NCBI GenBank assembly: GCA_964291415.2
Contig: OZ219920.1
Location: 1,248,001 to 1,312,000, forward strand
Source of the DNA: Alphaproteobacteria bacterium
Lineage (GTDB): Bacteria; Pseudomonadota; Alphaproteobacteria; SP197
DNA length: 64,000 bases
Direction of reading: 5' to 3'
The stretch's first letter is position 1, and every line of letters begins with the position of its first letter. Under the pieces are notes generated by a model. It was not told the DNA's origin and did no database searches. It was given only the letters and a program-made list of their open reading frames with translations. The position numbers and the translations under genes are program-made. This document shows positions 13,089 to 28,335 of this stretch, one piece after another.

Positions 13089-13103
13089 TGTGCGTTCCCT
13101 CCC

Positions 13104-13577
13104 CTAGGCCTGCGCTGCAGCGTCGGCCACGGCGGCCGAGGCGCGCATTCTGTCAAGACCGGTCCAGTTGGCATCGACATAGGTGATGGCTTCGGTGGGA
13201 CACGCCTTGGCGCACTCCGGATCGCCACCACACAGATCGCACTTGATCACCTTGCCGGTCGACTGGTTGTAGTTGATGGTGCCGAACGGGCACGCGATGG
13301 TGCATACCTTGCAACCGACACACAGCGCATCGCTGACCACCTTGGCGCCGGTATCCCGGTCAACCGAAATGGCGTTCGTCGGGCAGGCCTCGGCGCACCA
13401 GGCCTCGTCACACTGGGTACAGGTGTAGGGAACGAAACGTCCCTTCCCTTCGAAGTTGAAGACCTTGATCCTCGACTTGGAAGGGTTGAACACCCCTTCA
13501 TTGTCAAGCGAACAGGCCAGTTCGCACTGAAGGCAGCCTGTGCACTTGTTCGGGTCGATGGACAGAGATTTCTGCAT
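13104..13577 (-). CDS. aorA: 4x[4Fe-4S] polyferredoxin subunit of AOR
   Basis: CTGCLQCELAC, CTQC...C...CPT, CVGCKVCTIACPFG, KCDLC...C...CPT; C-terminal WTGLDRMR; GGAGG RBS. Confidence 0.9.
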   Translation of the reverse strand: MQKSLSIDPNKCTGCLQCELACSLDNEGVFNPSKSRIKVFNFEGKGRFVPYTCTQCDEAWCAEACPTNAISVDRDTGAKVVSDALCVGCKVCTIACPFGTINYNQSTGKVIKCDLCGGDPECAKACPTEAITYVDANWTGLDRMRASAAVADAAAQA

Positions 13578-13707
13578 CAATAGAGCCTCCCTAGAGCCGA
13601 CACCACAACATCGAAGAACGGTAGCGCTCCGGCCAGGAAACTGCAAACACAATCATCGACTTGCAACTCGGAACCATTCCCAACTTCAGTCATGGATTCA
13701 AACGGTG

Positions 13708-14097
13708 TCAGCTTCGACGGCGTGTTCCTCCCGGAACCAGGGGACGTGTCTCGACAGCACTGCCTGTAACAACACCATCGGGCGACTGGCCATAGGCATG
13801 GAGTACGTCGAGAAGCGCCCTCGCGGTGTCGTGATCGGGTGACATCCTGGTCGCCAGCAGCGGCGGTTTGCCACGTTGCATCGCCACCGCATTGCAGGCG
13901 TCGGGACAATGAGTCAGGCACACGATCGGGTGAATGCGCTCCCTTTCTGCCGGCGAGGCGATGGCGCAGGCAATGTCGTGGAGCCGCTTTCCCGGCAGGT
14001 CGTCACCATCCGGCATGACGTCAAGCGCCCTCCAGCGACAGGTCACGCAGATGCGCAGACTCGCCGGCCGGACACCTCTGGATCCACGTTTGCGCAT
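13708..14097 (-). CDS. DUF1636-like predicted metal-binding protein
   Basis: ICVTCR...PG..L...VCLTHCPDAC...GK...Y..SPDG Cys pattern; GGAG RBS. Confidence 0.6.
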   Translation of the reverse strand: MRKRGSRGVRPASLRICVTCRWRALDVMPDGDDLPGKRLHDIACAIASPAERERIHPIVCLTHCPDACNAVAMQRGKPPLLATRMSPDHDTARALLDVLHAYGQSPDGVVTGSAVETRPLVPGGTRRRS

Positions 14098-14134
14098 GGT
14101 GCCACTCTCCGGGTGACCCTCACCGGATGCGGTT

Positions 14135-14162
14135 TTGACACAATCCGCGGCGCTGCGATAGT
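14135..14162 (+). promoter_or_regulatory. Putative sigma-70 promoter of the M81 peptidase gene
   Basis: TTGACA-16 nt-GATAGT, 26 nt upstream of the ATG at 14189. Confidence 0.45.
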
Positions 14163-14188
14163 TGAGGCATCAAAACGGGAGATCCGCC

Positions 14189-15685
14189 ATGAACAGGCGT
14201 GCGGTCGTCGCCATGATGGAACACGAAACCAACACCTTCTCGCCGGTGCCGACACCGCTTTCCCGTTTCGGCTCGCCTGACGTTCCGACGGGCTCGGAGG
14301 TTTATCGACGCTTCAAGGGAACCGGAACAGGAATTGGCGCCTTCCTCGATGTCGCCGATGAAGCTGGCATGGAGATCGTCACGCCGATCGCCGGCAACGC
14401 CGCTCCTTCAGGTGCGGTCGAGAGTCACGCCTATCAGGTGATGTGCGATGCCATCATGGAGGCCGTCAAGGCTGGCTGCGACGTCTGTTTCCTCGACCTC
14501 CACGGTGCCATGGTCACCGAAACGACCGACGACGGTGAAGGTGGTCTTCTGAAACGAATCCGTGATGTCGCGCCGGACCTTCCCATCGCCATCAGCCTCG
14601 ACCTTCACGCCAATATCACGCCTGACATCGTTGAAAACACGGACGTGATTGTCGGCTACAAGACCTACCCGCATCTCGACATGTACGAGGCCGGCTATCA
14701 TGCCGGACGCATCATGGTGGATGCCCTCGACAGGAAGGTGACACCGGTGATGGCATGGGGACAGCGCCCCATTCTCGCGCAGACCCTGCGCATGGGCCAT
14801 GACGACGAACCCATGGGGTCGATGATCGCCATGGCCCGCCAGGCGGAAGAGACCGGACTGCTGGCAGTGAGCGTCTTCGGCGGCTTTCCCCTGGCAGACT
14901 TCCACAATGCGGGCCTCTCCGTCGTGACGGTGGCCGATGGCGACCGCGGCGAAGCCCAGGAGGTTGCGGAACGCCTGCTCGGTGAAGCGTGGCGCCGCCG
15001 CGACGAATGGCTCTTCGAGGGCGAGACGCTGGAGCACGCGATAGCCCGTGCCGGACAGATGGAGGAAGGTCCGGTCATTCTCCTCGATCATGCCGACAAC
15101 GCCGCTTCCGGGGGAACACAGGATACGGTCGCCGTCTTGCGGGAGGTCATGCGCCAGGGACTTGAGAATGTCGCCATGTTCGGCATCTGCGACGAAGCGG
15201 CAATCGATGCGATGACAGCGGCCGGCGTCGGCAACGAGGTCACGATCGAGCTCGGCGGCAAGGTCGACATGCCCGAGATTGGCAGAAAGGGGGAGCCGCT
15301 CACCGTGACCGGGAAGGTCCGCTCCCTCACCGACGGCGATTTCACCGTCACGGTACCGATGGGCCGGGGAACGACGATGTCCATGGGACGATCCGGCGTC
15401 CTCCAGACCGGCAACGTCGAGATCGTCGTCGTATCGCGCCAGACCGAGCCCTATGACCCGGGATGCCTGCGCAGCGTCGGGATCGAACCCCTCCACAAGC
15501 GCTACATCATCCTCAAGTCGCGCATTCACTTCCGGGCGGGGTTCAGCGACATCGCCGCTGCTGAAGTTCCCTGCAATGGCGTCGGCGTGACGAGCAGCGA
15601 CAACAGCCTCTTCACCTTCCGCAAGGTGCGCCGTCCCATCTTTCCCCTCGACCCCGACTGCCCGGAACGGCCCAACTACGCCTGA
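14189..15685 (+). CDS. M81 family metallopeptidase (MlrC-like)
   Basis: HETNTFSP, LDLHGAM, SLDLHAN, YKTYPHLD, DHADNAASGG, LKSRIHFRAGF. Confidence 0.92.
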   Translation: MNRRAVVAMMEHETNTFSPVPTPLSRFGSPDVPTGSEVYRRFKGTGTGIGAFLDVADEAGMEIVTPIAGNAAPSGAVESHAYQVMCDAIMEAVKAGCDVCFLDLHGAMVTETTDDGEGGLLKRIRDVAPDLPIAISLDLHANITPDIVENTDVIVGYKTYPHLDMYEAGYHAGRIMVDALDRKVTPVMAWGQRPILAQTLRMGHDDEPMGSMIAMARQAEETGLLAVSVFGGFPLADFHNAGLSVVTVADGDRGEAQEVAERLLGEAWRRRDEWLFEGETLEHAIARAGQMEEGPVILLDHADNAASGGTQDTVAVLREVMRQGLENVAMFGICDEAAIDAMTAAGVGNEVTIELGGKVDMPEIGRKGEPLTVTGKVRSLTDGDFTVTVPMGRGTTMSMGRSGVLQTGNVEIVVVSRQTEPYDPGCLRSVGIEPLHKRYIILKSRIHFRAGFSDIAAAEVPCNGVGVTSSDNSLFTFRKVRRPIFPLDPDCPERPNYA

Positions 15686-15748
15686 CCGGCAGCGCCGGGA
15701 AAGCGACTCCCTTGGGGAAGGCGTTGACACGAGTGGACAAGATGCGCT

Positions 15749-16072
15749 TCAGGGCCGTTCGAACATCCTACCGGGAACATCCCGTGCGCCGTGAAGGACG
15801 CGCCAAACATCTACTTCCGCCTCCCTCTCGATATAGAAGATCAGATACGGAAACCTCCCGACGGTCCGGAAGCGCAGGCCGGGAATGTCCAGCTCGTGAG
15901 CGTAACGCGGCGAGCCACTCTTCGGCCGCAAGCCGATCTCGCGGAGGACATCCTCGAGCGCATCAACGAAAGTGAGTGTGACTGCCGAACCCGCTTCGGT
16001 CAGATAGTGTTCGATTGCATCATTGATGTCATTCTGCGCCCGTTCGCGAAGAACAACGGGCTTTGCACTCAC
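15749..16072 (-). CDS. parE: Type II toxin, ParE/RelE family
   Basis: A..DI..AIEHY...P.SGSPRY...FPYLIFY...VWRVLHGARD. Confidence 0.9.
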   Translation of the reverse strand: MSAKPVVLRERAQNDINDAIEHYLTEAGSAVTLTFVDALEDVLREIGLRPKSGSPRYAHELDIPGLRFRTVGRFPYLIFYIEREAEVDVWRVLHGARDVPGRMFERP

Positions 16073-16308
16073 CGTCGGCCGGATTCATGGACCCGGCCGC
16101 GAAGACTCTCAAAATAGTCTTCGTCAGCATGGACCGATGGCGGCGATACCGCTCCTTCGAGAAGCAGATCGCGCATTCGCTGGCGATCCTGGTCCGAGCG
16201 AATCAGTTCGCGAACGTACTCACTCGACGTGCTGTAGCCACGTTTAGCGACCTGATCTGCCACGAAGTCCCTGAGTGCTTGGGGCAACGATATGTTCATT
16301 GTGCTCAT
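16069..16308 (-). CDS. parD: Type II antitoxin, ParD family (ribbon-helix-helix)
   Basis: MSTMNISLP..LRDFV..QV...GYSTSSEYVRELIR; 4-nt overlap with the toxin gene. Confidence 0.92.
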   Translation of the reverse strand: MSTMNISLPQALRDFVADQVAKRGYSTSSEYVRELIRSDQDRQRMRDLLLEGAVSPPSVHADEDYFESLRGRVHESGRR

Positions 16309-16314
16309 GTCTCG

Positions 16315-16345
16315 ACACTAACGACATTGGCAAACTTTGGCAAAA
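16315..16345 (-). promoter_or_regulatory. parDE promoter (probably leaderless) with TTTGCCAA direct-repeat operator
   Basis: Minus strand reads TTGCCA-17 nt-TAGTGT-6 nt-ATG. TTTGCCAA occurs twice over the -35 and spacer. No SD. Confidence 0.6.
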
Positions 16346-16491
16346 GTCTAAACGACCAGTGTGGTCATACCTACTCAACGCGGCCCCATGATCAGGAGGA
16401 ACGGCGTGTCCGAAAGGGCTTCCCCTGCCCTCTGTTCCGGCAGCCGCTCGTGCATGGGTCGTGCCACGCCCTGGTTTCTGCCGATTGGAAG

Positions 16492-16560
16492 CGTACAACA
16501 TGACAATCAGAAGTCATTGCACTGACAGTTAGAAGTCAGTGGAGTGACAATTGGGAATCG
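16492..16560 (+). repeat. Three 22-bp-period imperfect repeats; solo degenerate transposon-end-like array
   Basis: CGTACAACA followed by TGACAATCAGAAGTCATTGCAC / TGACAGTTAGAAGTCAGTGGAG / TGACAATTGGGAATCG. Confidence 0.65.
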
Positions 16561-16860
16561 AGGCGCCTGTCACACCTCAATCTGCGGTCTCTCAACGTCC
16601 ACGCGCAACCATCCCTTCTGGATGTGGCCTCCTTCCGGTAAGGCAGGCGGGTCCGGTTTCGGGTCCCGACTCCGTGAACCGTGCTCTTTCACGGATATTC
16701 AATGCATCAGGTGCGAGTTCAAGGGTGTCGGCACTCGGGGAATGCGGAAGAGGGCTCGCCGTATCGCTCGGCGCCGTGGAAATCCGGTCTCCGGATCCGA
16801 CGCGGAACCCGCCCGGAATCGCTCCGGCGGTTGCAGGTGGTGGTCGACGCCGCATCGGCG

Positions 16861-16892
16861 CCTCAGTCCACGGAATCGCCGCGTGGCTGAGG
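16861..16892 (-). terminator. Hairpin downstream of the molybdoenzyme operon
   Basis: CCTCAG-t-CCACG...CGTGG-CTGAGG, 30 nt after the stop codon. Confidence 0.4.
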
Positions 16893-16922
16893 GGGGTCGC
16901 TTCGACTTGCGGGAACCGTGCC

Positions 16923-19288
16923 TCAGTGCAGGGCGTCGAGTGCGGTGACGACGTTTTCGGGTGTCATGGGCATGTCGACCCAGGTGCCGATGGCATTGTA
17001 GACGGCCTGGGCGATGGCCGGTCCGGATGCTGCCGCCGGTGCCTCCCCGGCGCTGCGAGCGCCGAAGGGGCCCACCGGGTCGTAGGACTCGCCGTATATC
17101 ACCTCGCCGCGCAGCGGGAAGTCAGCTGCCCGCAGGAGCTTGTAGTCGAGAAGGTTGGCATTGAGGATGCGGCCATCGTCGTCAAAGGACAGCGCCTCAT
17201 AGATGGCAAATCCGGCGCCGCAGATGGCGCCGCCGATCATCTGGTTCTTCATCACCTGGGGATTCATGATCGTGCCGCTGTCCTGGGTCGCCAGAAAGTC
17301 CAGCAACCTGATCTCGCCGGTCTCGATATCAACCTCGACATCCGCAAAGTGCGCCGCGAAGTGTCTGGCGAATGTGCTGGCCGGTGGCATGGGGCCCTGT
17401 GGCCTGCCGGTAATCGACGATGCCTGACCCAGCGCGTCGGTGCCACGGAAGTGATTGAGTGCCTCCTCAACCGTAATGCGGATGTTCCGCTTGTTTGGGT
17501 CCTTGGAGTAGATGACACCGTCGGCCACATCGAGCTCCTGGCGGGGTGAGTCGAAGAACTCCCTGCCGGCAATGTCCAGCAACTGGCGTTTGGCGTCATT
17601 GGCTGCGGCGCGTGTCGCCCAACCGACGCGGTACATGGTGTTGCTGGCCAGAGACCCGTGACTCCAGGGGCAGGAATCGGTATCGCCTGTCTCGATCTCC
17701 ACCTTGTCAAATGGAATGCCGAGTTCCTCCGCCGCCACCTGGGCCTGGGTTGTCTCGCTTCCCTGACCCTGCCGGCCGACAGCGCAGTGGACCTTGGCGC
17801 TTCCGTCCGGATTGATACGCACGACGGCCGAGACATTGCCCTCGAATTCGACACCGCAGACATGGGCCCCCGTGCCGACACCAACGGCCCTGCGTCGGGG
17901 CCCGTCCACGGCATAGGGCACTCCCCAGCCCTTCCACTTCGACGACCAGTCGAAGGCCTCGGCGCCCTTGCGCAGGATTTCGTCGGTGGAACCGCTCGAC
18001 AGATGAAAGAGCTTTGGCCATTCCTGACGTTGCTCCTCGGGAATGCCCTCGAGATACTGCTCGAGCGATCCCTTCATGTACTGCCGGCTGTGCTGCATGC
18101 GCAGGCGTTCGCCAGGCTTGATCTGATTCTTCAGACGGAACTCCACCGGGTCCATGCCGAGACGAATGGCACACATATCGGCCACCCTTTCCACGACCGA
18201 GCCCAGGGTGACATCGCCGACCGCACGCATGCAGCCTGCGGTCAGCAGATTCGTGTTGACGCCGTGAATGGCATAGTGCCCGTGTTCCGCGCGACCCCAG
18301 TTGTCGACACAAAAGAAGCCGACGTCATCCTTGAAGCCATAACCGCCGTTGTCGATGATGTGGTCGAACTCCGCCAGGGTCAGGGTGCCATCGTTGCGGC
18401 ATCCCATGCGGCCCCTGGAAACCTCTATGTGCCGGCGCTTCACCGTCGCCATGCACTCCTCGTTGGACAGCTCGATCTTGACAGGCTTGCGTACCTTGCG
18501 GGCAAGCAGAGCCGTGATGAGCATGAAGTTGGCGCTCCACCAGTTGCCAAAGGAACTACCTGACGGCAATGCGATGACACGGACCCGGCTGAGCGGAATT
18601 CCGAAGGCCTCGTGGATGCCGTCACGCAATTCCGAAGGTGTCTGGGACGAGGTCCACAGGGTCACGCGATCACCGTTCCATTCGGCGATACAGGCATTGC
18701 GGCCCAGCGGAGCCATTTGCTGACTGGCAAAGCGGATCTCGGTCTCGACGATGAAGTCCGCCTCGTCGGCTCCCTTCGCGACGTCGCCCCACTCGACGAC
18801 ATAAGGGTCACGAAGGTTGCCCTCCTCGCGTATCTGCGGGCCTCGGGCTGCATCGCCTCTTCCGGATCGAAGACCGCATCAAGAATCTCGTACTCGACAT
18901 CAATGAGCTCAAGCGCCGCTTCGGCAACGTCCTCGCTAACGGCAGCCACCGCCGCCATGTCGTCACCGTGAAAGCGGGCAATGCCGTCAAGAATCTTGCC
19001 GCGATAGTTGAACCAGGCGTTCTCCCAGACATTCTGGGGCGTGTCGTGATGGGTGACGACGCCGAGCACGCCGGGGAGTGCCTCGGCCCTTGTGGTGTCG
19101 ATGGAGACGATGCGCGCATGCGCATGGGGACTGCGCAGGATCTTGCCGTGCACCATGCCCTGGACTTCAAGATCGACAGCGTACTTCAGTGCGCCCGTGA
19201 CCTTTTCCCGGGCGTCCTTCACGGGAATGCCCTTGCCGGCGATCCTCCAGGCAGACCGGTGTCCCATTGATTCTGTCGTTGCTGCCAT
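16923..19288 (-). pseudogene. Xanthine dehydrogenase/CoxL-family molybdopterin large subunit, split by a 1-nt frameshift at ~18838 (pseudogene or assembly error)
   Basis: N-terminal part KVTG..KYAVD, LRSPHAHARI. Adding one base to the GGG at 18838-18840 gives EAPQIREEGNLRDPYVVEWGDV...QQMAPLGR, continuous with the 597-aa ORF (GQGSETT, MDPVEFRLKN, GARSAGE). Confidence 0.88.
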
Positions 19289-19304
19289 CGTCCCTCTCCC
19301 CTCG

Positions 19305-19793
19305 TCAACCGGTGTCCGAACCCGGGTCCCCTTCCCTCAGTCGTGCCGCCGCATTCATGACGGACTTCACGATGTAGGGATAAGCCCCGCAGCGGCATAT
19401 GTTTCCGCTCATGGCCATGGCGGCCTCTTCCTCTGTTGGATCGGGATTCTCATCAAGGAAGGCCTTGGCGGCCACGATGAAGCCCGGTGTACAGAATGCA
19501 CACTGGAACCCCTGTTCCTCGATGAAGGCCTCCTGAATCGGATGGAGGTTGTCCTCGTTGCCAAGCCCCTCGATGGTCACAATCTCGCGTCCCTCGGCCT
19601 GCATGGCGAGGACAAGGCAGGATGTGACAGGTTCGCCATCCATGATCACCGTGCAGGATCCGCATTCCCCCTCGCTACACGACACACGCACTCCGTGAAG
19701 TCCAAGAGCGCGTCTCAGAAGATCGCAAAGGCGCTCGTGCGGTTTCGCATCAAGGTCGAATGTCCGGCCATTGACGGTCATGCGAATCATCAT
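19305..19793 (-). CDS. Xanthine dehydrogenase-family 2x[2Fe-2S] subunit (CoxS-like)
   Basis: CSEGECGSCTV, SCL, TIEGL, FQCAFCTPG, GNICRC. Confidence 0.93.
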   Translation of the reverse strand: MMIRMTVNGRTFDLDAKPHERLCDLLRRALGLHGVRVSCSEGECGSCTVIMDGEPVTSCLVLAMQAEGREIVTIEGLGNEDNLHPIQEAFIEEQGFQCAFCTPGFIVAAKAFLDENPDPTEEEAAMAMSGNICRCGAYPYIVKSVMNAAARLREGDPGSDTG

Positions 19794-20668
19794 TCGTCCC
19801 TTCCGAGTCGCTCCAGCGCATCGGCGAGCGCACGACGGACGAGGACCGGACACATCCGCGCGCGATAGCCGGCGCCGGCACGGACATCCGAAATCGGCCG
19901 TGCGACCGCCGCGGCATGACCGGCGGCTTCCTCGAGGTGTGTCGCGTCAATGTCATCCAGGGACCTGCCGGCAACAGCCTTCTCGCCTTCCTTTACGCGA
20001 ACCGGAACCGGCGCCACGGAACCCAGCGCAATGCGCGCGTCCGTGACGGTGCCGTCATCAGCGGTCAACGACACCGCCGCACTCACCAGGGCGATGTCGA
20101 CGACCGTGCGGGCAACCCTGCGATAGCTTGCTTCGCGCCGCGCCTGCGGCACCGGCACGACAATGGCGCACAACAGTTCTTCCGCCTTCAGGGCCGTCGT
20201 GTTCACGCCTGTGAGGAAATCCTCCATCGACACTTCCCGCCGACCGTTCGGGCCCTGGATCAGACAGCGGGACTCGAGCGCCACAAAGAGTGGCGAAAGA
20301 TCCGCTCCCGGCGAGGCGTTGCACATGTTGCCGCCGACCGTGGCCAGAGTGCGGGTCTGCTTCGTGCACATGAGCCGTGCGGTATCGCCAAGCGCTTTCA
20401 TGACCGGATGCATCGAGGCGGCATGGTCTAGGTCATCGAGGGTCGCCATCGCCCCGATCCTGATTTCACCTGGCACCGCTTCGATACTGTCGAGCCCGTT
20501 GAGGTGTGTCAGATCGATGCAATGGTCGATCGCCACCTCGCCTTGACGCCACTGCAGCATCAGGTCTGTACCGCCTGCCCAGTAGCGGGCGCGCTCGCCA
20601 TGACGGGATTTCATGGCAATCGCCGCATCGATGCTGTCGGGGCGCAGGTAGTCGAATTGTCGAATCAC
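19790..20668 (-). CDS. Xanthine dehydrogenase-family FAD-binding subunit (CoxM-like)
   Basis: FDYLRP, AGGTDL, ATVGGNMCNASPGADL, PISDVRA...YR; GTG start inferred. Confidence 0.92.
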   Translation of the reverse strand: MIRQFDYLRPDSIDAAIAMKSRHGERARYWAGGTDLMLQWRQGEVAIDHCIDLTHLNGLDSIEAVPGEIRIGAMATLDDLDHAASMHPVMKALGDTARLMCTKQTRTLATVGGNMCNASPGADLSPLFVALESRCLIQGPNGRREVSMEDFLTGVNTTALKAEELLCAIVVPVPQARREASYRRVARTVVDIALVSAAVSLTADDGTVTDARIALGSVAPVPVRVKEGEKAVAGRSLDDIDATHLEEAAGHAAAVARPISDVRAGAGYRARMCPVLVRRALADALERLGRDE

Positions 20669-20760
20669 CGGGCGTTTTCCGGAATTGGCTGCAGCAGGGC
20701 TATTTCCGCATATCGGTTCGTTCAGTTCAAGGCGTCGGCATGGCTTCTTGATCGGCACGT

Positions 20761-20780
20761 GTGACTGTTGATATCGTCAC
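20761..20780. promoter_or_regulatory. Palindrome in the divergent promoter region (candidate operator)
   Basis: GTGAC-tgttgatatc-GTCAC, midway between the coxM-like and permease starts. Confidence 0.35.
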
Positions 20781-20893
20781 CGTTGCGGGGAGGATGCTTC
20801 CATGTGTTGTGCGCGCCCGGACGATCGGTTTCCGGCATGATCAGGCTGCGAAGGCGCAATCGCGAGGATGTTGATCAGATCGCCCGACGCAGT

Positions 20894-21688
20894 GTGTCGC
20901 TCTTCGAACTGCGTACCGTACTCTCCGGCAGAACCACGCTCCTTCTGGGTCTCGCCGGAGCAACCGGATTCTTCGTCATCTGGGAAATTGGCCACTACCT
21001 CACCCCTGAAGAAAGTCAGAGATTCCTTCCGGCGCCCCAGGAAGTCCTGGGCGCCCTCATCACCCTTATCGTGGAAAAGGACTATATCGCTGACATTCTC
21101 AAGAGTTGCTTTCGCATCTTCGCCAGCTTCTTTGCGGCCTGTCTGATCGCTGTGCCGCTCGGCATCGCCATGGGTTGTTTCATGAGGCTGAGAGCGCTTC
21201 TCAATCCGACGATCTCCGCCTTCCGCTACCTGCCCGCTGCCTCCTTCATTCCCCTGCTCCTGGTGTGGTTCGGCCCGACGGACACACAGAAACTGGCCCT
21301 GCTGGTGCTGGGTGTCATCTTCTTCCTTGTGGCGCTCATCCTGGACAATACCAAGGCGGTGCAACCGGAACTGATCGAGGCGGCGCTGACCATGGGAGCC
21401 GGACGGCGCCAGGTGGTGACCGAGGTCGTGGTTCCGGCCGTGGCGCCCGCCGTGGTGGACTCCATGCGCAACATGATCGCCGTGGGCTGGACCTACCTCG
21501 TCATCGCCGAGATCGTCGCGGCGTCGGACGGCATCGGCGCCGTCATGATGCGCGCCGGGAGGTTTCTCAAGGTCGATATCATCATGGCGGGGATTCTCAC
21601 CATCGGTTTCCTCGGCGTGGCTACAGACCTCCTGTTCCGCCTTGCTGCGCGTTACGCCTTCCCATGGAACCGCGAACGCGGTGATTGA
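20894..21688 (+). CDS. NitT/TauT-family ABC transporter permease
   Basis: FLPAP, RYLPAASFIPLL, EAALTMGA (EAA loop), GWTYLVIAE. Start uncertain. Confidence 0.9.
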   Translation: MSLFELRTVLSGRTTLLLGLAGATGFFVIWEIGHYLTPEESQRFLPAPQEVLGALITLIVEKDYIADILKSCFRIFASFFAACLIAVPLGIAMGCFMRLRALLNPTISAFRYLPAASFIPLLLVWFGPTDTQKLALLVLGVIFFLVALILDNTKAVQPELIEAALTMGAGRRQVVTEVVVPAVAPAVVDSMRNMIAVGWTYLVIAEIVAASDGIGAVMMRAGRFLKVDIIMAGILTIGFLGVATDLLFRLAARYAFPWNRERGD

Positions 21689-21690
21689 TC

Positions 21691-22488
21691 ATGCCGATTG
21701 ATCAGGCGCCGGCACGTACGGCGATCACGGCCAGCAACGTTACGCGCCAGTATGTTGGCGGCACCTTCACCGCTGTCGACAACATCTCGATGGAACTGCG
21801 GGAAAACGAGATCGTCTGCTTCATCGGACCGTCGGGGTGCGGCAAGACGACCATGCTGCGCATGATCGCCGGGCTCGAGTACCCCTCGATGGGCGACCTC
21901 ACGATCTTCGGCAAACCCATCACTGGCCCCGGTCCCGACCGAGGCATGATCTTCCAGGCCTATACGTCGTTCCCGTGGCTGACAGCGCGCAAGAACATCG
22001 AATACGGCATGAAGATCATGGGATTGTCGCGGGATGAACGCAGCAGGCGGTCTGATGAGTTTCTCAAGCTGGTCCATCTCGACGGCTTCGGCGGTTCCTA
22101 CCCGGCGAGCCTCTCGGGAGGCATGAAGCAGCGTGTGGCGATTGCCCGCACCCTGGCGCAGAACCCGGGGGTGCTGTTGATGGACGAACCCTTCGGTGCC
22201 CTCGATGCCCAGGTACGCTGGGAAATGCAGGAAATGATGATCGAGATCATCGAACGCGAGAACACCACGGTCGTCACTGTCACCCACGACATTCAGGAAG
22301 CCATATATCTATCGGATCGCATTATCTTCTTCACCCGTTCACCCGGGCGCATCAAGGCCGACATTCCGGTGTCGTTCAAGGAGGGACGGCGTATCCCGCG
22401 CAAGGAGGAAATGCTGGCACTTCCAGGCTACGTCGACCTCGAACGACAGCTTTTTGCCATGATGCGCGAGGAGATTCAGCAGAGGTAA
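21691..22488 (+). CDS. NitT/TauT-family ABC transporter ATP-binding protein
   Basis: GPSGCGKT, GPGPDRGMIFQ, LSGGMKQR, LLMDEPFGALD, VTHD. Confidence 0.95.
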   Translation: MPIDQAPARTAITASNVTRQYVGGTFTAVDNISMELRENEIVCFIGPSGCGKTTMLRMIAGLEYPSMGDLTIFGKPITGPGPDRGMIFQAYTSFPWLTARKNIEYGMKIMGLSRDERSRRSDEFLKLVHLDGFGGSYPASLSGGMKQRVAIARTLAQNPGVLLMDEPFGALDAQVRWEMQEMMIEIIERENTTVVTVTHDIQEAIYLSDRIIFFTRSPGRIKADIPVSFKEGRRIPRKEEMLALPGYVDLERQLFAMMREEIQQR

Positions 22489-22517
22489 GAGAGATCAACC
22501 AAGGGAGGATATGTGTC

Positions 22518-23663
22518 ATGCAAGGATTACTGAAGCGTGCAACCGGTCTTGTCGCCGGTCTGCTGCTGGCGGTCACCCTGACCGCCGGGAGCGCCCCGCG
22601 CGCAGCGGAGGATGTGACCGTCACCCTCATTCCTGTCTCCGTCTACGGACCCTGGTTCATCGTCCAGGAAAAGGACATGGCTGAAGGCATCAATCTCGAG
22701 GTGCAGATCATCGAGGACATCACGGCACGCAATGCCGGCCTCTCCACCGGTCACCTGCAGTGCATGATGACGACCATGGACTCCACCGTCGTTGCCCATG
22801 CCGCAGGCATCCCGGTAAGGCATGTGGCAGTACCGCTGATGTCCTACGGGCTTGACGAGATGGTGGTGGCGTCCGACATCCAGTCGGTCGAGGACTTCGC
22901 GGGGCGTTCCTACGCCGCCGACTACGGCTTTCTCAACCACATGTGGATGTTGCTGACCCTCAAGCGCGCGGGCATGGACTTCGATGCCGCAGAGCACAAG
23001 ATCATGCTGCCGCAGGATGCAACCGCTTCCTTCGTCAGCGGGGCCCTCGATATCGATGTCAACTTCATCCCGTTTTCCACGCAGTCCCAGGAACGCGAGG
23101 ACTCATACCTCTTCAAGAGCAGCCGCACGGACCGCACCTGGGAACGCGGCCTGATTTCCGACTCCATCGCCTGCAACACGACATGGATGGCCGAAAAGCC
23201 GGAGGTGGCCAGGGAACTGCTGCGCTCATGGTTCGAGGCCGTGAACTGGTGGAAGGAGAATCCGGCGGAAGGCAACGAGATCGTCGCCAGGGGTCTGGAC
23301 TGGCCGGTCGGGGACGTCGAGATCACCCAGCAGGGAACCGTGATGCTCAACATCAACCAGAATCTCGGCGCAATCGGCGTCGAGGGTGGTGTGCCGATGT
23401 GTGCCAGCATTCCCGAAGGGGCGCCGCTTCCTCCTGACGAGCCGAGCAACTGGGGTCAGATGTTCGGCGGAGAGGACTGCGAGGCCGGATACCTGAATTC
23501 GACCTGGGACATCTTCGCCTCTGTCTACCACGAGGCTGGCGTGACGGATAACGAGCCGACAGCCGAAGACGGCATCGACAACAGCCTTCTCTTGTCGCTG
23601 GCTGCCGACGGTTTCGGCGAGACGTACAATTCCAACAAGTGGATTGGCCGTTCCGGCATGTAG
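22518..23663 (+). CDS. SsuA/THI5-like ABC transporter substrate-binding protein
   Basis: Signal peptide; YGPW...SYGLD...IQSVEDFAGR...H..L...L.RAG pattern; operon with permease and ATPase. Confidence 0.85.
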   Translation: MQGLLKRATGLVAGLLLAVTLTAGSAPRAAEDVTVTLIPVSVYGPWFIVQEKDMAEGINLEVQIIEDITARNAGLSTGHLQCMMTTMDSTVVAHAAGIPVRHVAVPLMSYGLDEMVVASDIQSVEDFAGRSYAADYGFLNHMWMLLTLKRAGMDFDAAEHKIMLPQDATASFVSGALDIDVNFIPFSTQSQEREDSYLFKSSRTDRTWERGLISDSIACNTTWMAEKPEVARELLRSWFEAVNWWKENPAEGNEIVARGLDWPVGDVEITQQGTVMLNINQNLGAIGVEGGVPMCASIPEGAPLPPDEPSNWGQMFGGEDCEAGYLNSTWDIFASVYHEAGVTDNEPTAEDGIDNSLLLSLAADGFGETYNSNKWIGRSGM

Positions 23664-23736
23664 GACTCGATGGCTGCCCTGCCCTTTTCAGCAAGGGCGG
23701 GGCAGCACATCCGCGGCATGATAGGGAGGTTGAGAC

Positions 23737-24684
23737 GTGGCTGATGTTCTCAAGATCGATTCCCATGTCCACATCTATGAGACCCACGAGATCGGCAGAG
23801 CCGAAAAGACGGGTTACGAGGTCTGGGAGTACGGAGAGCTTGCCGGAGTGAGGGCCAGCGCTCTCGACGGCACGGTCGACGAGTTGCTGGAGTCCATGAC
23901 CTCAGCCGGGATTTCGCGTGCCGTCATCGTCAATCTCTATACCACTGACGAGATACGTTCGCAGGCCGTCGCCCGCCTCGAACCCGGGCTCACCGCGAGC
24001 ATGCGCGAGAAGGCAATCGCGGACATCGAAGCGCGCATGACGGACGAGATGCGGCAGTTCAACCTGTGGGCCTGTGGCGTCGGGCACCAACACCCGCAAC
24101 TCGCGATCTTCATTGCCGCCGACCCCCTGCTGGCGCCCGATGAGGCGGGTGCCGCCCTGGTCAGCGAACTCCACGAGTCCCATGGCGCCCATGGCGTTAA
24201 ACTCCATGGTCCGGCCCAGGGGTGCATGATGTCGGACCGGCGCCTGTGGGCCACCTACCGGGCCTGCGAGGAACGCGCCATGCCGATCATTGCCCATGCC
24301 GGCCCCGACCGGCAGGGAATCGGGTATTCAGATCCACCTGCCTTCGTCGACATGTTGCGGGACTTTCCCCGCCTCAAGGTCGTGGTTGCCCACCTTGGCG
24401 GCGCCTCGTGGCGTCAGACTCTGGAGGTGGCGGAGGCCTTTCCCAACGCCTACTTCGACTGTTGCGAGATCATTGACTGGACGGGAAGCCCCAATGGTCC
24501 AAGCGAGATGGAACTCGCCCGCCTCATCAGGGAAATCGGCACGCACCGTGTCATGATGGGTTCCGACTACCCCTGGTACGATCTCGACAACACCGTCGAT
24601 CGCGTCATGGAGCTGCCCCTGCTTTCAAAGGAAGAAAAAGAGAGCATCCTGGGAGCCAACGCACAATCCATCCTCGGTCTGTAG
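23737..24684 (+). CDS. Amidohydrolase (Amidohydro_2 family)
   Basis: IDSHVH, GVKLH, IAHAG, VAHLGG, MGSDYP. Confidence 0.9.
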   Translation: MADVLKIDSHVHIYETHEIGRAEKTGYEVWEYGELAGVRASALDGTVDELLESMTSAGISRAVIVNLYTTDEIRSQAVARLEPGLTASMREKAIADIEARMTDEMRQFNLWACGVGHQHPQLAIFIAADPLLAPDEAGAALVSELHESHGAHGVKLHGPAQGCMMSDRRLWATYRACEERAMPIIAHAGPDRQGIGYSDPPAFVDMLRDFPRLKVVVAHLGGASWRQTLEVAEAFPNAYFDCCEIIDWTGSPNGPSEMELARLIREIGTHRVMMGSDYPWYDLDNTVDRVMELPLLSKEEKESILGANAQSILGL

Positions 24685-24906
24685 CCGCGCCCGGACCCGC
24701 TGCGCTTCATCTTTGCTCCGGTTGGCATTCCCATCAGGAGAAATCGACATGTCGTCGAACCTGTCCTGCTGGTCAGCGCCAACGGTCTCCGGGTGTGCGC
24801 AAGCCGCTCCGGAACACAGGACCCGGACTCACCGACCTCCGGGTGAATACGGAGGAATCGCCGATTCTTCGGCCAAGGGGCACCAAACTTGGTGGCAGCG
24901 CTTCGG

Positions 24907-26091
24907 TCAATCCGTCATGACGCTGTCGCGGTGGCCGAGCTTGCCTTCCACCACCATGGTGCCGATGGTATCGAGGATGACCCGGCACGCCAGCTGGGAG
25001 GTATTGTCGTTGACATCGTAGGGCGGGGAGACCTCGACGACCTCCATGCCGCACAGGCCTTCACGGGCGATCAGGCGCACCATCTCCAGGGCCTCGCGGG
25101 GCGTGAACCCCCCGGGTTCCGGGGTGCCGGTGCCGGGTGCGAAGCCAGGGTCGATGGAATCGATGTCGAACGAGAGATAGACAGCCTTCGCTCCCTTCCA
25201 GGCAAGTTCGAGGGCGACTTCCGCCGTCTTCCTGGTGCCGAGTTCCTCGACGTCGGTCATGGTGAGCACACTGGTGCCGCGCTCGCGGGCAATCTCGGAA
25301 CCACGCCTTGAGCCGTACCAGCCACCGATGCCGATCTGCACGAGGTTCTTCGGCGGACAGTTGGCGAGACCGACGTCGTGCATGTGGGTATGGGCATGGT
25401 GGGACTCCGCCCGGTCGACGCTCTCGTGATCGTTCGACGTCCAGTACCACGGAGTCGTGTGCATCCGCTCGTCCATGTCCATGTCGGCCATGTCGATATG
25501 CCGGTCGAAATGAATGATTCCGACGTTTCCATCGATGTGGGGCGCTATGCCGCGAACGTTGGGATAGCCGAGGCTGTGATCACCTCCCACGAGGATGGGA
25601 AAGGCGCCCGAGGTGTAGACGTGGGAAACCGCCTTCGAGACCTGGTCGAAGGTCTTCTCGATATTACCCGGAATGACGAAGACATCGCCGGCATCGGCAA
25701 GATCGAGTTCTTCGGGAAGATCGATGCCTCCATCAACGCTGTAGCCGTCATAGACAGCGGAAATGCGCCTCACCGCCTGGGGACCGAACCGGGTTCCCGG
25801 CCGGTACGTTGTCCCGGTGTCGAAGGGGATGCCCACGAAGGCGGCCTCGTAGTCGCCGATCCGCCTGATGTCCTCGCAGTAGGGCGCCTTCATGAAGGTG
25901 TTGATGCCGGCAAAGGCTGGCAGATGGCCGCGGCTGAACAGCGAGATGGTCCTGTCATTGATGGAATCAGCGGCCTCAAGACCGAGTTCCAGCCCGCGCT
26001 GGATCTCCTCTTCCTGCTTGGTCTGCGAAATGCGCGCCAGGCGATGGAGATTGCGTGTGCCCCTGAAGGCCTGGTCGTCCCTGTCGGCCAC
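24907..26091 (-). CDS. Ureohydrolase of the guanidine hydrolase (GdmH) subfamily, variant
   Basis: GLEAADSINDR..FSRG.LP.FAGINTFMKAPY, GTTYRPGTRFGP, GGDHS, HFDRHID, DERMHT, SFDIDS, PGTGTPEPGG, VEVSPPYD. GTG start with GGAGG. Confidence 0.88.
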   Translation of the reverse strand: MADRDDQAFRGTRNLHRLARISQTKQEEEIQRGLELGLEAADSINDRTISLFSRGHLPAFAGINTFMKAPYCEDIRRIGDYEAAFVGIPFDTGTTYRPGTRFGPQAVRRISAVYDGYSVDGGIDLPEELDLADAGDVFVIPGNIEKTFDQVSKAVSHVYTSGAFPILVGGDHSLGYPNVRGIAPHIDGNVGIIHFDRHIDMADMDMDERMHTTPWYWTSNDHESVDRAESHHAHTHMHDVGLANCPPKNLVQIGIGGWYGSRRGSEIARERGTSVLTMTDVEELGTRKTAEVALELAWKGAKAVYLSFDIDSIDPGFAPGTGTPEPGGFTPREALEMVRLIAREGLCGMEVVEVSPPYDVNDNTSQLACRVILDTIGTMVVEGKLGHRDSVMTD

Positions 26092-26155
26092 GTGGCGATC
26101 CTCCCGGTCTTGCCGGGCGATAGTGCCGGAGCGCGGATCATCAATCAACGAGGGA

Positions 26156-26230
26156 TGGTGGGCGCGGCTGGGATTGAACCAGCGACCCCTACGATGTCAA
26201 CGTAGTGCTCTCCCGCTGAGCTACGCGCCC
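26156..26230 (-). tRNA. tRNA-Val(GAC)
   Basis: Reverse complement GGGCGCGTAGCTCAGCGGGAGAGCACTACGTTGACATCGTAGGGGTCGCTGGTTCAATCCCAGCCGCGCCCACCA. Confidence 0.97.
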
Positions 26231-26425
26231 CATCGGCGACTAGATATCCGACAGCCCCCCACCATGCAACCGGGGACTGTGACACCGTGCTCCTGCCAGC
26301 ATGGCGTCATCCGACAAACCCGGCTTCGACAATTCTTCGGTGTCTCCGGGTTTTTCCGGTTTGGCGACGAGATCGGCCGGTTCCGCCCCGTTCAAGGATC
26401 CATCAGCCCTGGCGATGGCGCCTCG

Positions 26426-27181
26426 TCAGTTCAGGCCGCGTTCCTTCTTGATACGGTCCCAGGCGGCGTTGATTTCGGCCATCTTGCGGTTGGCGACCTC
26501 GATGAACTCCTCCGGCAGCCCCTGGGCAGTGACCCGATCGGGATGATTCTCCCGAAGCAGCTTGCGGTAGGCCGCCTTCACGTCGCGATCACTGGCCTCC
26601 GCCGACACACCGAGAACCTCATATGGGTCGCCGGAGGTCTCGCCGGCTACCGTGAACATGCCTTCGAGACGCCTCATGTCAGCGGACGAGAATCCGAAGA
26701 TGCGCCCGACATCGTTGATGATGGCGCGCTCGGCGGCGTGATAGTGGCCATCCACGTGAGCAACCATCAGCAGGGCGCCGAGGAGATCTTCCCTCACCGC
26801 CCGCGAGTGTCCGAGCAGGGACGCGATCTGACGGGCATAGGACTCGTAGCCCTCAGCGCTTTCCTTTGCGGCATTGAAAATGCGACCGACATCTCCCGAA
26901 GCCGATTGTGGTACGGGGAGAACGCGCTTGAGCGCCTGCACCTCGTCCCGCGTGACGCGGCCATCTGCCTTGGCAAGCTTGGCGACCAGGGCGATCACGG
27001 CCAGGGTGAAGGCAACCTGAAGCTCGTCCGTCGACGAACCCTGGTGCGTGACCGCGGGTCTCTTGCCCTTCAGGGTCTGATCAACAAGGTGCCCCGCGGC
27101 AAGCCCCATGAGAGCGCCAAGCGGGCCTCCCAGTGCGAAGAAGCCGACCGTGCCACCGATAATCTTGCCCCAGACGCTCAT
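26426..27181 (-). CDS. djlA: DjlA co-chaperone (N-terminal TM, TerB-like domain, J domain)
   Basis: MSVWGKIIGG..GGPLGA, AKLAKADG, DPYEVLG, AYRKL..ENHPD, AEINAAW. Confidence 0.9.
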   Translation of the reverse strand: MSVWGKIIGGTVGFFALGGPLGALMGLAAGHLVDQTLKGKRPAVTHQGSSTDELQVAFTLAVIALVAKLAKADGRVTRDEVQALKRVLPVPQSASGDVGRIFNAAKESAEGYESYARQIASLLGHSRAVREDLLGALLMVAHVDGHYHAAERAIINDVGRIFGFSSADMRRLEGMFTVAGETSGDPYEVLGVSAEASDRDVKAAYRKLLRENHPDRVTAQGLPEEFIEVANRKMAEINAAWDRIKKERGLN

Positions 27182-28077
27182 GCAACGGTCTCTTGTTGTC
27201 TGAGAGATCCACGGGCGTGAAGGGATCCACCGCGGATCCAGTCCGCCAGTGGATTGCACCTCGACCAGTGGCCGGCGTACCCGGCCAGAGTGTCGAACAC
27301 GACCCCGTCGTGTTCGCAAAAGAAATCGATCAGGCGCTCCAGCATCATCAACCGGTGGCCACGTCCGATCACCTGGGGATGCATGGTGAGATTGTAGATT
27401 CCACCTGGCACATGAGTGTGCGCCCATGTGAATTCCTGGCGCCAGATTTCCTCGACATGGGAGGCGGGCTTGAGACCGCCGCCCGTGTCGTCGAGTTCAA
27501 AATAGGGAAAGTCATCGAGTCCCCAGGTGACCGGCAGTTCGACGATGTCGAGATGTGTGCCGAACTCGTAGGGCTCGGTGGCCGGGGCCTTGTCCCCGGT
27601 CCGCATGTAGTAGGGCGTGAAGTCGTCTCCCATGAGGCTCGAATCGTAGAGGAAGCCGAATTCCTCGAGGAGATCCGCCGTGCGTTCGCTGAAGTCCCAG
27701 GCCGGCGACCGGTAGCCCACGGGCCGCACCCCGCAGGCCTGGTCGAGAGCCTCGAAACCGCGTTCCAGATTGCGCCGTTCCCCTGTCTCGTCAAAGTCCG
27801 CAGGATTTTCATGAACCCAGCCGTGGTGGGCGATTTCGTGCCCGGCATCATGGATGGCCCTGACCAGGTCAGGCCAGGCAAGGGCCGTGTGCCCAGGTAT
27901 GCAGAAGGTGGCCTGGATCGATCGGCGCTGGAGCAGGTCGAGAATGCGGGGGATGGCGACGGCGCCGAATTCGCCCCGGGAGATCTCGCTGGGATTGCTT
28001 GACCGATAGGAGCCGATCCACACCGACATGGCATCGAAATCAAAGGTCAGACAACACGTCAGGCGTGGTTGGTCCAT
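27178..28077 (-). CDS. Polysaccharide deacetylase family (CE4, PgdA/PuuE-like) hydrolase
   Basis: LTFDFD, ATFCIPG, GHEIAHHGWVHE, GYRSP, YDSS, TMHPQVIGR. Confidence 0.88.
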   Translation of the reverse strand: MDQPRLTCCLTFDFDAMSVWIGSYRSSNPSEISRGEFGAVAIPRILDLLQRRSIQATFCIPGHTALAWPDLVRAIHDAGHEIAHHGWVHENPADFDETGERRNLERGFEALDQACGVRPVGYRSPAWDFSERTADLLEEFGFLYDSSLMGDDFTPYYMRTGDKAPATEPYEFGTHLDIVELPVTWGLDDFPYFELDDTGGGLKPASHVEEIWRQEFTWAHTHVPGGIYNLTMHPQVIGRGHRLMMLERLIDFFCEHDGVVFDTLAGYAGHWSRCNPLADWIRGGSLHARGSLRQQETVA

Positions 28078-28083
28078 GGCCTT

Positions 28084-28335
28084 CTACCCTCCATCGATCG
28101 GAGGCATGACGACCAGGCGATCACCATCAGCGAGCCTGTAGTCCGACCGTAATGCCTCCCTGACAACATGATCGTTGACCAGTGTGAGCGCTGGTCGCTC
28201 CTTCAGCGCTCCGAGCCGGACAAGGGCGCCAGCGAGTGTCGTGTCCTCCGCAAGATCCCATTCGCCCCTGCCGTCAGCACCGATGTCGGGAACGGTCTCG
28301 CCTGCGTAGGCGGCGAGTTTCACCGACACCTTCAT
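28084..28335 (-). CDS. MoaD/ThiS family sulfur carrier, copy 2
   Basis: MKVSVKL...LVND...LADGDRLVVMPPIDGG; ATGA overlap with aorB2. Confidence 0.88.
   Translation of the reverse strand: MKVSVKLAAYAGETVPDIGADGRGEWDLAEDTTLAGALVRLGALKERPALTLVNDHVVREALRSDYRLADGDRLVVMPPIDGG

Follow-up and report, generated by a model that had tools for sequence, protein, structure and literature searches.

The window analysed here is a 64,000-nucleotide stretch of an alphaproteobacterial genome (assembly GCA_964291415.2, contig OZ219920.1, positions 1,248,001 to 1,312,000), and its subject is a block of genes in which a three-subunit molybdenum hydroxylase of the xanthine dehydrogenase (XDH) family, an importer, a metal-dependent enzyme and a relative of the guanidine hydrolase GdmH lie side by side. 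The coxM-, coxS- and coxL-like genes of the hydroxylase (together CoxMSL) run leftward; divergent from them are genes for a NitT/TauT-type permease, an ABC ATPase, a periplasmic binding protein and an Amidohydro_2 protein, on which the gdmH-like gene converges. All seven genes that an earlier, sequence-only reading had placed here (7/7) were recovered in the arrangement it gave, by open reading frame (ORF) listing and Pfam scans. Comparison with other genomes supports a functional link that would couple Mo hydroxylation to the release of urea from a guanidine-type substrate, as members of this CoxMSL subfamily accompany four kinds of urea-releasing guanidino hydrolases in Proteobacteria, Actinomycetota and a Chloroflexi-labelled metagenome-assembled genome (MAG). 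Fetched loci of homologs are labelled L001-L159 and the source genome, of 4.44 Mb, is G000. In window coordinates the block comprises the following.

16923..18716, minus strand: coxL-like large subunit, C-terminal 597-aa frame with the Mo-cofactor-binding domains (PF20256, E 1.3e-64; PF02738, E 2e-40)
18662..19288, minus strand: coxL-like large subunit, N-terminal frame with the a/b hammerhead domain (PF01315, E 9.5e-28)
19305..19793, minus strand: coxS-like [2Fe-2S] small subunit (PF01799, E 9.9e-31; PF00111)
19790..20668, minus strand: coxM-like FAD subunit, FAD_binding_5 plus CO_deh_flav_C (PF00941, E 8e-41; PF03450, E 5.6e-22)
20669..20836, no strand: divergent intergenic (promoter) region of 168 bp between coxM and the permease gene, delimited by their inferred starts
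20837..21688, plus strand: NitT/TauT-type ABC permease (PF00528, BPD_transp_1, E 3e-20)
21685..22488, plus strand: ABC ATPase (PF00005, E 1.6e-30)
22518..23663, plus strand: periplasmic binding protein of NMT1/SsuA type, the block-type paralog (PF09084, NMT1, E 2.5e-10)
23737..24684, plus strand: Amidohydro_2 metal-dependent hydrolase or decarboxylase of an uncharacterised subfamily (PF04909, E 1.1e-31)
24907..26091, minus strand: GdmH-like ureohydrolase of 394 aa, convergent to the transporter operon (PF00491, E 4e-78)

Several of these starts lie inside longer frames. The coxS ORF is open to 19853 with its likely start Met, judged from the ORF translation, at 19793; coxM is open to 20758 and on sequence reading probably starts at GTG 20668, its orthologs having 293-294 aa; the permease ORF is open from 20768 with ATG 20837 as the likely start; and the gdmH-like ORF, open to 26148, probably starts at GTG 26091 behind the Shine-Dalgarno sequence GGGAGGA. 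No block protein scores above the cut-off of an NCBIfam equivalog: the XdhA model reaches 304 against 780 bits and the agmatinase model TIGR01230 169.1 against 174.3 bits, while the permease is TauC/SaoP-like below the model cut-offs.

The hydroxylase has the complete architecture of the XDH/CoxL family, with a hammerhead and two Mo-cofactor-binding domains, a 2x[2Fe-2S] subunit and an FAD subunit. Among solved structures the best relatives of CoxL are 4-hydroxybenzoyl-CoA reductase (1.8e-78) and then the carbon monoxide dehydrogenases, and the sequences SSQTPS and SAGEAP (read in the L003 ortholog) align with the corresponding positions of both; we take their Gln and Glu to be the active-site Gln and the catalytic Glu. 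Aerobic carbon monoxide dehydrogenase of form I was considered and rejected: its active-site loop is presumably VAYRCSFR, with the Cu-binding Cys, and where 1n5w and 1zxi have YRCSFR the protein here has MRAVGD, the models for that enzyme giving 169-202 bits against cut-offs of 950-991. Judged by sequence, CoxMSL is an uncharacterised member of hydroxylase type and no carbon monoxide dehydrogenase.

A coxL-like gene is present as the sequence-only reading had it, only not as a single intact gene, being split over two frames by a one-nucleotide deletion. One base is missing at about 18838-18841 by comparison with all three close relatives (L001, L002 and L003), in the context GAGGC-CCGCAG on the gene strand. 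As this is a short C run, the deletion may be an assembly error; it is the only coding-region indel in 16834-24836 with respect to L003, so the assembly otherwise looks clean. The L003 ortholog, at 16769-19135 of that locus, is an intact gene of 788 aa, and intact orthologs of 781-796 aa are found in L003, L120, L123-L127, L131 and L132. A real deletion would probably leave this organism without the oxidative arm, with only uptake and cleavage by the ureohydrolase remaining.

The CoxL subfamily is scarce, 25 loci with 61-100% identity being found in about 186,000 species genomes, and at 19 of these an arginase-family gene lies within the fetched locus. Of the remaining six, five come from short contigs (4-9 kb), and L131 has the gene about 2 kb beyond the fetched stretch. 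The sequence-only reading had named co-localisation of the homologs in other genomes as a check, and this is borne out: the block recurs with other flanks and in rearranged order in L124, L125, L126 and L132, from all of which the window's flanks are absent and whose GdmH-like proteins show 86-90% identity. L124 has CoxMSL, the Amidohydro_2 gene and the gdmH-like gene without the transporter and L125 the full block; in L126 the gdmH-like gene is placed beyond coxL and has a Gim-like binding-protein gene to itself, and the Chloroflexi-labelled L132 has CoxMSL, several transporters and a gdmH-like gene.

More distant members of the subfamily keep company with other amidinohydrolases. L137 and L139 have a co-directional row of genes for a PuuE-like deacetylase, an APC permease, one or more SDR proteins, an agmatinase/GpuA-like ureohydrolase and CoxM, CoxS and CoxL, the ureohydrolase gene (best PDB match 3nip, 4.7e-81) immediately preceding coxM. 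The same set is reordered in L136, with a PucR regulator added. L134 has an arginase-family gene, an SDR gene, a LysR gene and a DDAH/ADI-like gene, and in L140, from Primorskyibacter flagellatus, a divergent arginase-family gene immediately follows coxL. With 3, 3, 4, 12 and 6 arginase-family genes in the genomes of L137, L139, L136, L134 and L140, chance adjacency within 10 kb comes to about 1-9% per genome, by rough arithmetic that related genomes, being non-independent, do not satisfy strictly. The source genome itself has an intact CoxL paralog of 64% identity (G000:C1:282726-285047, locus L158), and the neighbours of that CoxMSL set are a PotD-type ABC system, a LysR gene, creatininase, creatinase (M24 plus Creatinase_N) and an SDR gene. 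The genome also has 11 arginase-family genes, all of them more than 20 kb away from its five further, more distant XDH-family paralogs.

The CoxL proteins linked to GdmH-like ones form one clade (SH-aLRT 97) in which the gammaproteobacterial L124 and L125 are nested among alphaproteobacterial members. In a tree of 85 GdmH-like proteins those linked to the block do not group together, their distribution taking 5 changes, of which the starred branches force at least 4; L124 and L125 go there with the gammaproteobacterial L023, and L126 with the simple-operon L009. From the conflict between the two trees it would follow that the CoxMSL module has moved beside resident gdmH-like genes several times, and repeated joining is the simplest reading of these sequences. 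Recruitment of that kind would imply selection on the adjacency, and also that the GdmH-like protein serves one function whether the module is present or absent.

The ureohydrolase itself is GdmH-like and no plain agmatinase, in agreement with the sequence-only reading, since its nearest relatives are the solved guanidinases Sll1077 of Synechocystis (7esr/7oi1, E 6.3e-135) and that of Nitrospira inopinata (9fek, 4.9e-134), the next family being guanidinobutyrase (3.6e-47). Equivalents of Thr105 (in DTGTTYR), His222 (in ERMHTTPW) and Glu344, in N. inopinata numbering and mapped by hand from the printed alignment, are kept in 81 of 81 homologs. So is a His-rich insert (S/T-H-x-x-H-x-H-M-H) right after the His222 motif MHTTPW, which both solved enzymes are without and which may be a built-in nickel-handling or gating loop. 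Among the 80 gdmH-like loci kept in the survey, out of 551 GdmH relatives, a gene for a HupE/UreJ nickel permease is just downstream in 12, and LysR is the commonest neighbour (38/80). Such neighbour counts are approximate, as the clustering relied on a crude 'longest ORF / GC3' gene caller and antisense ORFs polluted some clusters. The protein is filed as belonging to a GdmH-like sister clade, and its predicted substrate could be free guanidine or a small substituted guanidine.

Beside the gdmH-like gene are the three components expected of its importer, a NitT/TauT-type permease, an ATPase and an NMT1-type binding protein. The pairing, which the sequence-only reading gave as known from Synechocystis, is already published as gdmH-gimABC (PMC12704784), where GimA binds guanidine with a KD of about 97 nM through a pocket of W59, W62, F205, D135 and D233. 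In 13 of the 80 gdmH-like loci homologs of all three transporter proteins (55-76% identity) are encoded in co-directional operons with the gdmH-like gene, without CoxMSL or Amidohydro_2. A tree of 34 binding proteins separates 14 from transporter operons divergent to CoxMSL, which form one clade (branch 0.81, SH-aLRT 100), from 20 that adjoin gdmH-like genes only; the window's protein lies outside the latter clade and is, on the sequences, a paralog of the gdmH-adjacent type, in its sister clade. Two genomes have both kinds, that of L126, where the second, Gim-like protein is encoded directly upstream of the gdmH-like gene, and the window's own, where an orphan Gim-like gene (G000:C1:393287-394435; L152 9279-10439) falls in the gdmH-adjacent clade. 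This orphan follows directly after mnmE-mnmG-parA-parB, its product having 62% identity to the window's protein and 74% to that of L025, and no permease or ATPase gene is near it. The conserved aromatic and acidic columns are mostly common to both clades; the clade-specific changes are in the first strand-loop (AIISFSPYAPWY to TLIPVSVYGPWF) together with N85T, V102H, G133A and Y183F, a pattern that fits a related but different ligand. The only solved match of the window's protein is SsuA at E 1.7e-4 and so gives no basis for inferring the ligand.

What the sequence-only reading called an amidohydrolase is indeed a metal-dependent PF04909 protein; the ring-opening amidohydrolase that it had in mind gives way to an enzyme of ACMSD/LigW type, by both profile and fold. 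That group contains decarboxylases, hydratases and C-C hydrolases. In 23 sequences D8, H10, H12, K155, H157, H187, H219 and D277 are invariant, and the TIM-barrel fold has the HxH ... H ... D metal-site pattern in H10, H12, H187, H219 and D277. The nearest profile match is 3irs (1.2e-12, itself uncharacterised), followed by LigY and ACMSD; the model (pLDDT 94.3) has LigW, gamma-resorcylate decarboxylase, ACMSD, LigJ and IDCase as its top Foldseek matches, with TM scores of 0.58-0.70 at 13-19% identity. A cyclic amidohydrolase of dihydroorotase, hydantoinase or allantoinase type was looked for and is absent from the profile and listed fold matches, except for the uncharacterised 3cjp, 'dihydroorotase family'. 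Taken together, sequence, profile and fold assign the protein to the superfamily and the ACMSD-type group and no further. Decarboxylation, hydration and hydrolysis are all possible reactions. Orthologs with 70% identity or more are confined to the block, at 13 of 35 loci, 12 of them with CoxMSL and one cut at a contig end. The contexts of distant homologs have DAO oxidoreductases, creatininase, Amdase-like proteins and MFS transporters, with an arginase-family gene in 5 of 22, and are too heterogeneous for transfer of function. At two of these loci (L096 518-4619 and L098 4955-11276) homologs of 53-55% identity head a row of genes for Amdase-like, creatininase, hydantoin-racemase-family, ureidoglycolate-lyase-like and aldo-keto-reductase proteins, which looks like another uncharacterised N-heterocycle cluster.

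Three further features lie just outside the block.

16501..16544, no strand: two 22-nt direct repeats (core TGACAnTnAGAAGTCA; at 16501 and 16523), 2 matches against 0.21 expected by shuffling
26156..26230, minus strand: tRNA-Val(gac), 65 nt upstream of the gdmH-like start and on the same strand
27178..28077, minus strand: polysaccharide-deacetylase-family (PuuE-like) protein (PF01522, E 8.5e-19; PuuE model TIGR03212, E 5e-20, below cut-off)

Given the position and strand of the tRNA gene, read-through from its promoter into the gdmH-like gene is conceivable. Homologs of the PuuE-like protein (31-37% identity) are found in the CoxMSL loci L132, L136, L137, L139 and L140 and four paralogs in the source genome; it is a possible further partner of the block, weakly linked. 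To the left of the block are a ParE gene and then an M81/MlrC-like peptidase gene (14162-15685); to the right are DjlA, the deacetylase-family protein and an aldehyde:ferredoxin oxidoreductase (Pfam). Two paralogs of that oxidoreductase (56-57% mutual identity, from relatives' hits) and a 4Fe-4S ferredoxin flank the region, at 13104-13652 (minus strand), 28332-30158 (minus strand) and beyond 11000, an unusual set for an apparently aerobic alphaproteobacterium.

The idea of an islet bounded by the tRNA gene and a transposon end, put forward in the sequence-only reading, does not survive comparison with relatives, for the block and both its flanks, MlrC-like on one side and DjlA, the deacetylase and the aldehyde:ferredoxin oxidoreductase on the other, are syntenic in about 12 related genomes (L001-L006 of the gdmH set, L081-L089 and L093 of the 35 Amidohydro_2 loci, and L116-L123 and L127-L129 of the 25 CoxL loci, sets that overlap, the same contigs having been fetched more than once). 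The supposed transposon-end-like array comes down to the two 22-nt direct repeats, which have no further copy in the window and lie in a stretch (16508-16833) that is unaligned in L003 and present once in the 4.44-Mb genome; they are probably not part of the system. The GC content is flat (0.59-0.65) across 10-32 kb, and a Pfam scan of the ORFs from 170 aa upwards in 13.5-30.5 kb showed no integrase. The locus is best read as a catabolic cluster resident in the chromosome and no island. The ParDE cassette also noted at this edge is confirmed for ParE (PF05016, E 1.8e-12) and unconfirmed for the antitoxin, the upstream overlapping 79-aa ORF giving no Pfam hit at E <= 0.01. ParE with this presumed antitoxin (15749-16308, minus strand) is confined to the window and a single relative (the contig of L003/L081/L116), and a tandem 10-nt repeat (ACATTGGCAA/ACTTTGGCAA, 16324-16343) just upstream could be its operator. 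The gap between coxL and mlrC is variable, being occupied by the ParE cassette here, by IS1595 and a DNA methylase in L120 and by two DDE_Tnp_1 genes in L131. The L120 insertion, IS1595 transposase with the DNA methylase, is at 12556-15379 of that locus, and L131 (1-8300 and 12610-16581) has an rve-integrase plus AAA_25 element and two DDE_Tnp_1 genes of identical length.

From these comparisons we propose, at a little under an even chance, that the block encodes one pathway. A guanidine-type nitrogen compound would be imported by the block-type transporter, oxidised by the XDH-family molybdenum hydroxylase, processed by the ACMSD-type metal hydrolase or decarboxylase and finally cleaved by the predicted Ni-type GdmH-like ureohydrolase to urea and ammonia or a small amine, the urea being finished by the ureases of the genome, which has two urease alpha genes. 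The orphan Gim-like binding protein might hand the end substrate to this transporter's permease as well. The step order is our inference, and as a guess the imported compound may be a small guanidine with a ring, akin to creatinine, glycocyamidine or 2-aminoimidazole, that is hydroxylated at a ring carbon before the ring opens. A ring-type substrate is suggested because creatininase and creatinase adjoin the CoxMSL paralog, because PuuE-like and creatininase-type ring hydrolases recur in these loci and because the receptor has small-cation ancestry.

Several points weigh on the other side of the balance. The whole case rests on comparative genomics, with the substrate a guess; many loci come from MAGs and related loci are non-independent; and in genomes as rich in guanidino hydrolases as these (11 arginase-family genes here, 12 in G007) chance adjacency is likelier. 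Absence of the extra genes is the rule among gdmH-like loci: apart from the 13 with the three transporter genes only, 5 of the 80 have the binding protein only and 56 have none. Amidohydro_2 accompanies CoxMSL solely in the proteobacterial block, its 22 distant homologs (41-57% identity) being in varied contexts. The block is also decaying within its clade while the GdmH-like protein stays 97-99% identical: L120 is without Amidohydro_2, the window has the coxL frameshift, and in L131 the rve-integrase/AAA_25 element is in place of the transporter and Amidohydro_2 genes, with the gdmH-like gene (97%) about 10 kb from coxM. Rfam gave no guanidine riboswitch for the window at the gathering score, nor any for 15600-26600 with the limit relaxed to E <= 1, and none is present in the 7 simple-operon loci searched (0/7). 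Lastly, a guanidinase call is held to require Trp313 (Trp305 in Sll1077) along with Thr105 and His222 (Palatinszky et al., PMC11410670), and this Trp is replaced, the window having PGTGTPEPGG where both solved enzymes have GTGWPEPGG; of the 81 proteobacterial homologs 32 have Thr and 49 have Ser at the position, and none has Trp. Without Trp313 even guanidine is unproven as the substrate. A large proteobacterial 'GdmH' clade thus fails one published defining residue, so that genome surveys demanding Trp313 miss it and those that do without may over-call guanidinase.

Some of these same facts would be expected if the block were two independent neighbours, a free-guanidine module of GimABC-like transporter and GdmH-like hydrolase beside an unrelated Mo hydroxylase with a heterocyclic or aldehyde substrate of its own, and with Amidohydro_2 as a passenger. 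The 13 loci with transporter and gdmH-like operons alone fit this, as do the published sufficiency of gdmH-gimABC for guanidine assimilation (PMC12704784) and the loss or breakage of extra genes in the window, L120 and L131 with the GdmH-like protein kept. We nevertheless think it rather unlikely, since the co-localisation survives rearrangement and change of host lineage, members of the same CoxL subfamily share an operon with other ureohydrolases in Actinomycetota and, in this genome, adjoin creatininase and creatinase, and the block's binding protein is outside the gdmH-adjacent clade, of which a separate orphan is present.

The Actinomycetota bear on a different division of labour, in which the Mo enzyme would act on the carbon skeleton, for instance by oxidising a guanidino- or amino-aldehyde to the corresponding acid, either ahead of the ureohydrolase or following it. 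Their operons, with an amino-acid permease, one or two SDR genes and an agmatinase/GpuA-like gene, suit catabolism of linear guanidino amines or acids, and the XDH family includes aldehyde oxidoreductases, the PaoC and glyceraldehyde dehydrogenase models matching below cut-off. A hydrolase of free-guanidine type and a binding protein derived from a guanidine binder imply a very small substrate, for which such an oxidase is a poor fit, and the creatininase beside the paralog points to a ring; this scheme is distinctly improbable. Degradation of oxidised guanine, in which the Mo hydroxylase would lead to 8-oxoguanine-type products, hydrolases would open the rings and so free guanidine and the GdmH-like enzyme would remove it, is less probable still. 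Formation of guanidine from oxidised guanine by hydantoin-ring hydrolysis with XDH-type candidates is a published hypothesis (PMC12623156) and the PuuE-like deacetylase is two genes away; against that, by Pfam the block has no gene for a purine permease, deaminase, uricase or allantoin enzyme, the binding protein is of the small-cation NitT/TauT type, and CoxL falls well below the xanthine dehydrogenase cut-off given above. Hardly any credence can be given to a mobile islet reaching from tRNA-Val to a transposon end, in view of the syntenic flanks, the flat GC, the single-copy repeat segment and the absence of an integrase among the ORFs scanned. Some facts do speak for it: the block directly adjoins the tRNA gene, the coxL-mlrC gap of relatives is a preferred landing site of mobile DNA (ParE cassette, IS1595, DDE_Tnp_1), and gammaproteobacterial MAGs carry the block with CoxL identities of 90-92%.

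The single pathway from import to urea also has a wider form, quite unlikely, in which the CoxMSL subfamily would be the missing oxidative enzyme of cyclic-guanidine catabolism, hydroxylating a ring carbon of creatinine-, glycocyamidine- or 2-aminoimidazole-type compounds, with a lineage-specific amidinohydrolase (GdmH-like, GpuA-like or creatinase) ending in urea, and the block would be an orphan route of the 'creatinine to (methyl)guanidine' type. Ring opening or trimming, to yield guanidine, methylguanidine or a guanidino acid, would fall to Amidohydro_2, a PuuE-like deacetylase or creatininase according to lineage. The GdmH-like clade, with its His loop and without the Trp, would then hydrolyse (methyl)guanidine, its maturation proceeding without HypA/HypB-type chaperones, and the block-type binding protein would have evolved from a guanidine receptor into one for cyclic guanidinium compounds. 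Whatever the fate of that wider form, the company that the subfamily keeps makes it a candidate for an oxidative route from cyclic guanidines, such as creatinine-like compounds and 2-aminoimidazoles, to guanidine or guanidino acids. For this genome the news is more modest: a largely known guanidine-assimilation module with extra genes, one of them broken.

One of the source genome's 11 arginase-family genes (C1:701402-702202) follows a paralog of the PuuE-like deacetylase gene, with a DMFA2_C-domain protein and a DAO oxidoreductase encoded nearby (L159), and the organism would seem to be a specialist for nitrogen compounds of guanidino and amide type. Neither HypA nor HupE/UreJ was found in its genome.

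Guanidine is a recent addition to the known nitrogen sources, guanidinase dating from 2021-2022, growth of comammox bacteria on it from 2024 and the GimABC importer from 2025. The origin of environmental guanidine is still unsettled (PMC12623156). Among the closest described systems is the guanidine assimilation locus gdmH-ghaAB-gimABC of Synechocystis sp. PCC 6803 (PMC12704784; Funck et al. 2022, as cited in other papers), which has the same combination of a ureohydrolase close to Sll1077 and a NitT/TauT importer with an NMT1-type binding protein. The window's locus differs from it in having no guanidine-I riboswitch, in lacking a HypA-type chaperone in the genome, in the Thr for Trp305 and the His-rich insert of the ureohydrolase, in a binding protein that falls, in the tree of 34, in the sister clade of those encoded beside gdmH-like genes and in the added Mo hydroxylase and Amidohydro_2 genes. 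With the N. inopinata guanidinase (PDB 9FEK) the protein shares the equivalents of Thr105, His222 and Glu344, and differs in the Thr at Trp313; comammox guanidinase loci use an APC permease and a riboswitch (PMC11410670).

The CoxMSL of the block has low identity to any characterised member of its family. With aerobic carbon monoxide dehydrogenase it shares the three-subunit architecture and gene set, and differs in the active-site loop and the model scores. Clusters for N-heterocycles pair an XDH-family hydroxylase with an Amidohydro_2 decarboxylase, as in the picolinate pathway with PicA and PicC. The block resembles these in setting a three-subunit Mo hydroxylase beside a PF04909 enzyme akin to non-oxidative decarboxylases, and departs from them in being without a monooxygenase or ring-cleavage dioxygenase and in having a ureohydrolase as its end enzyme.

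Creatinine catabolism offers a likeness of another kind, a cyclic guanidine being opened there and then split to urea, and creatininase and creatinase adjoin the CoxMSL paralog of this genome. In L096 and L098 creatininase is also encoded close to the distant Amidohydro_2 homologs. Conversion of creatinine to methylguanidine is on record as a route with its enzyme uncharacterised (PMC11764249), and neither the literature search nor the available portion of that paper has a Mo enzyme in the described creatinine routes. A search of mainly open-access literature, parts of which were available, turned up no paper linking an XDH-family enzyme to guanidine, creatinine or 2-aminoimidazole catabolism; PMC12623156, in the portion at hand, merely speculates on E. 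coli XdhD-type enzymes and oxidised guanine. The pairing of gdmH with gimABC was known already, and what the genomes compared here would add to it is the association with CoxMSL and Amidohydro_2.

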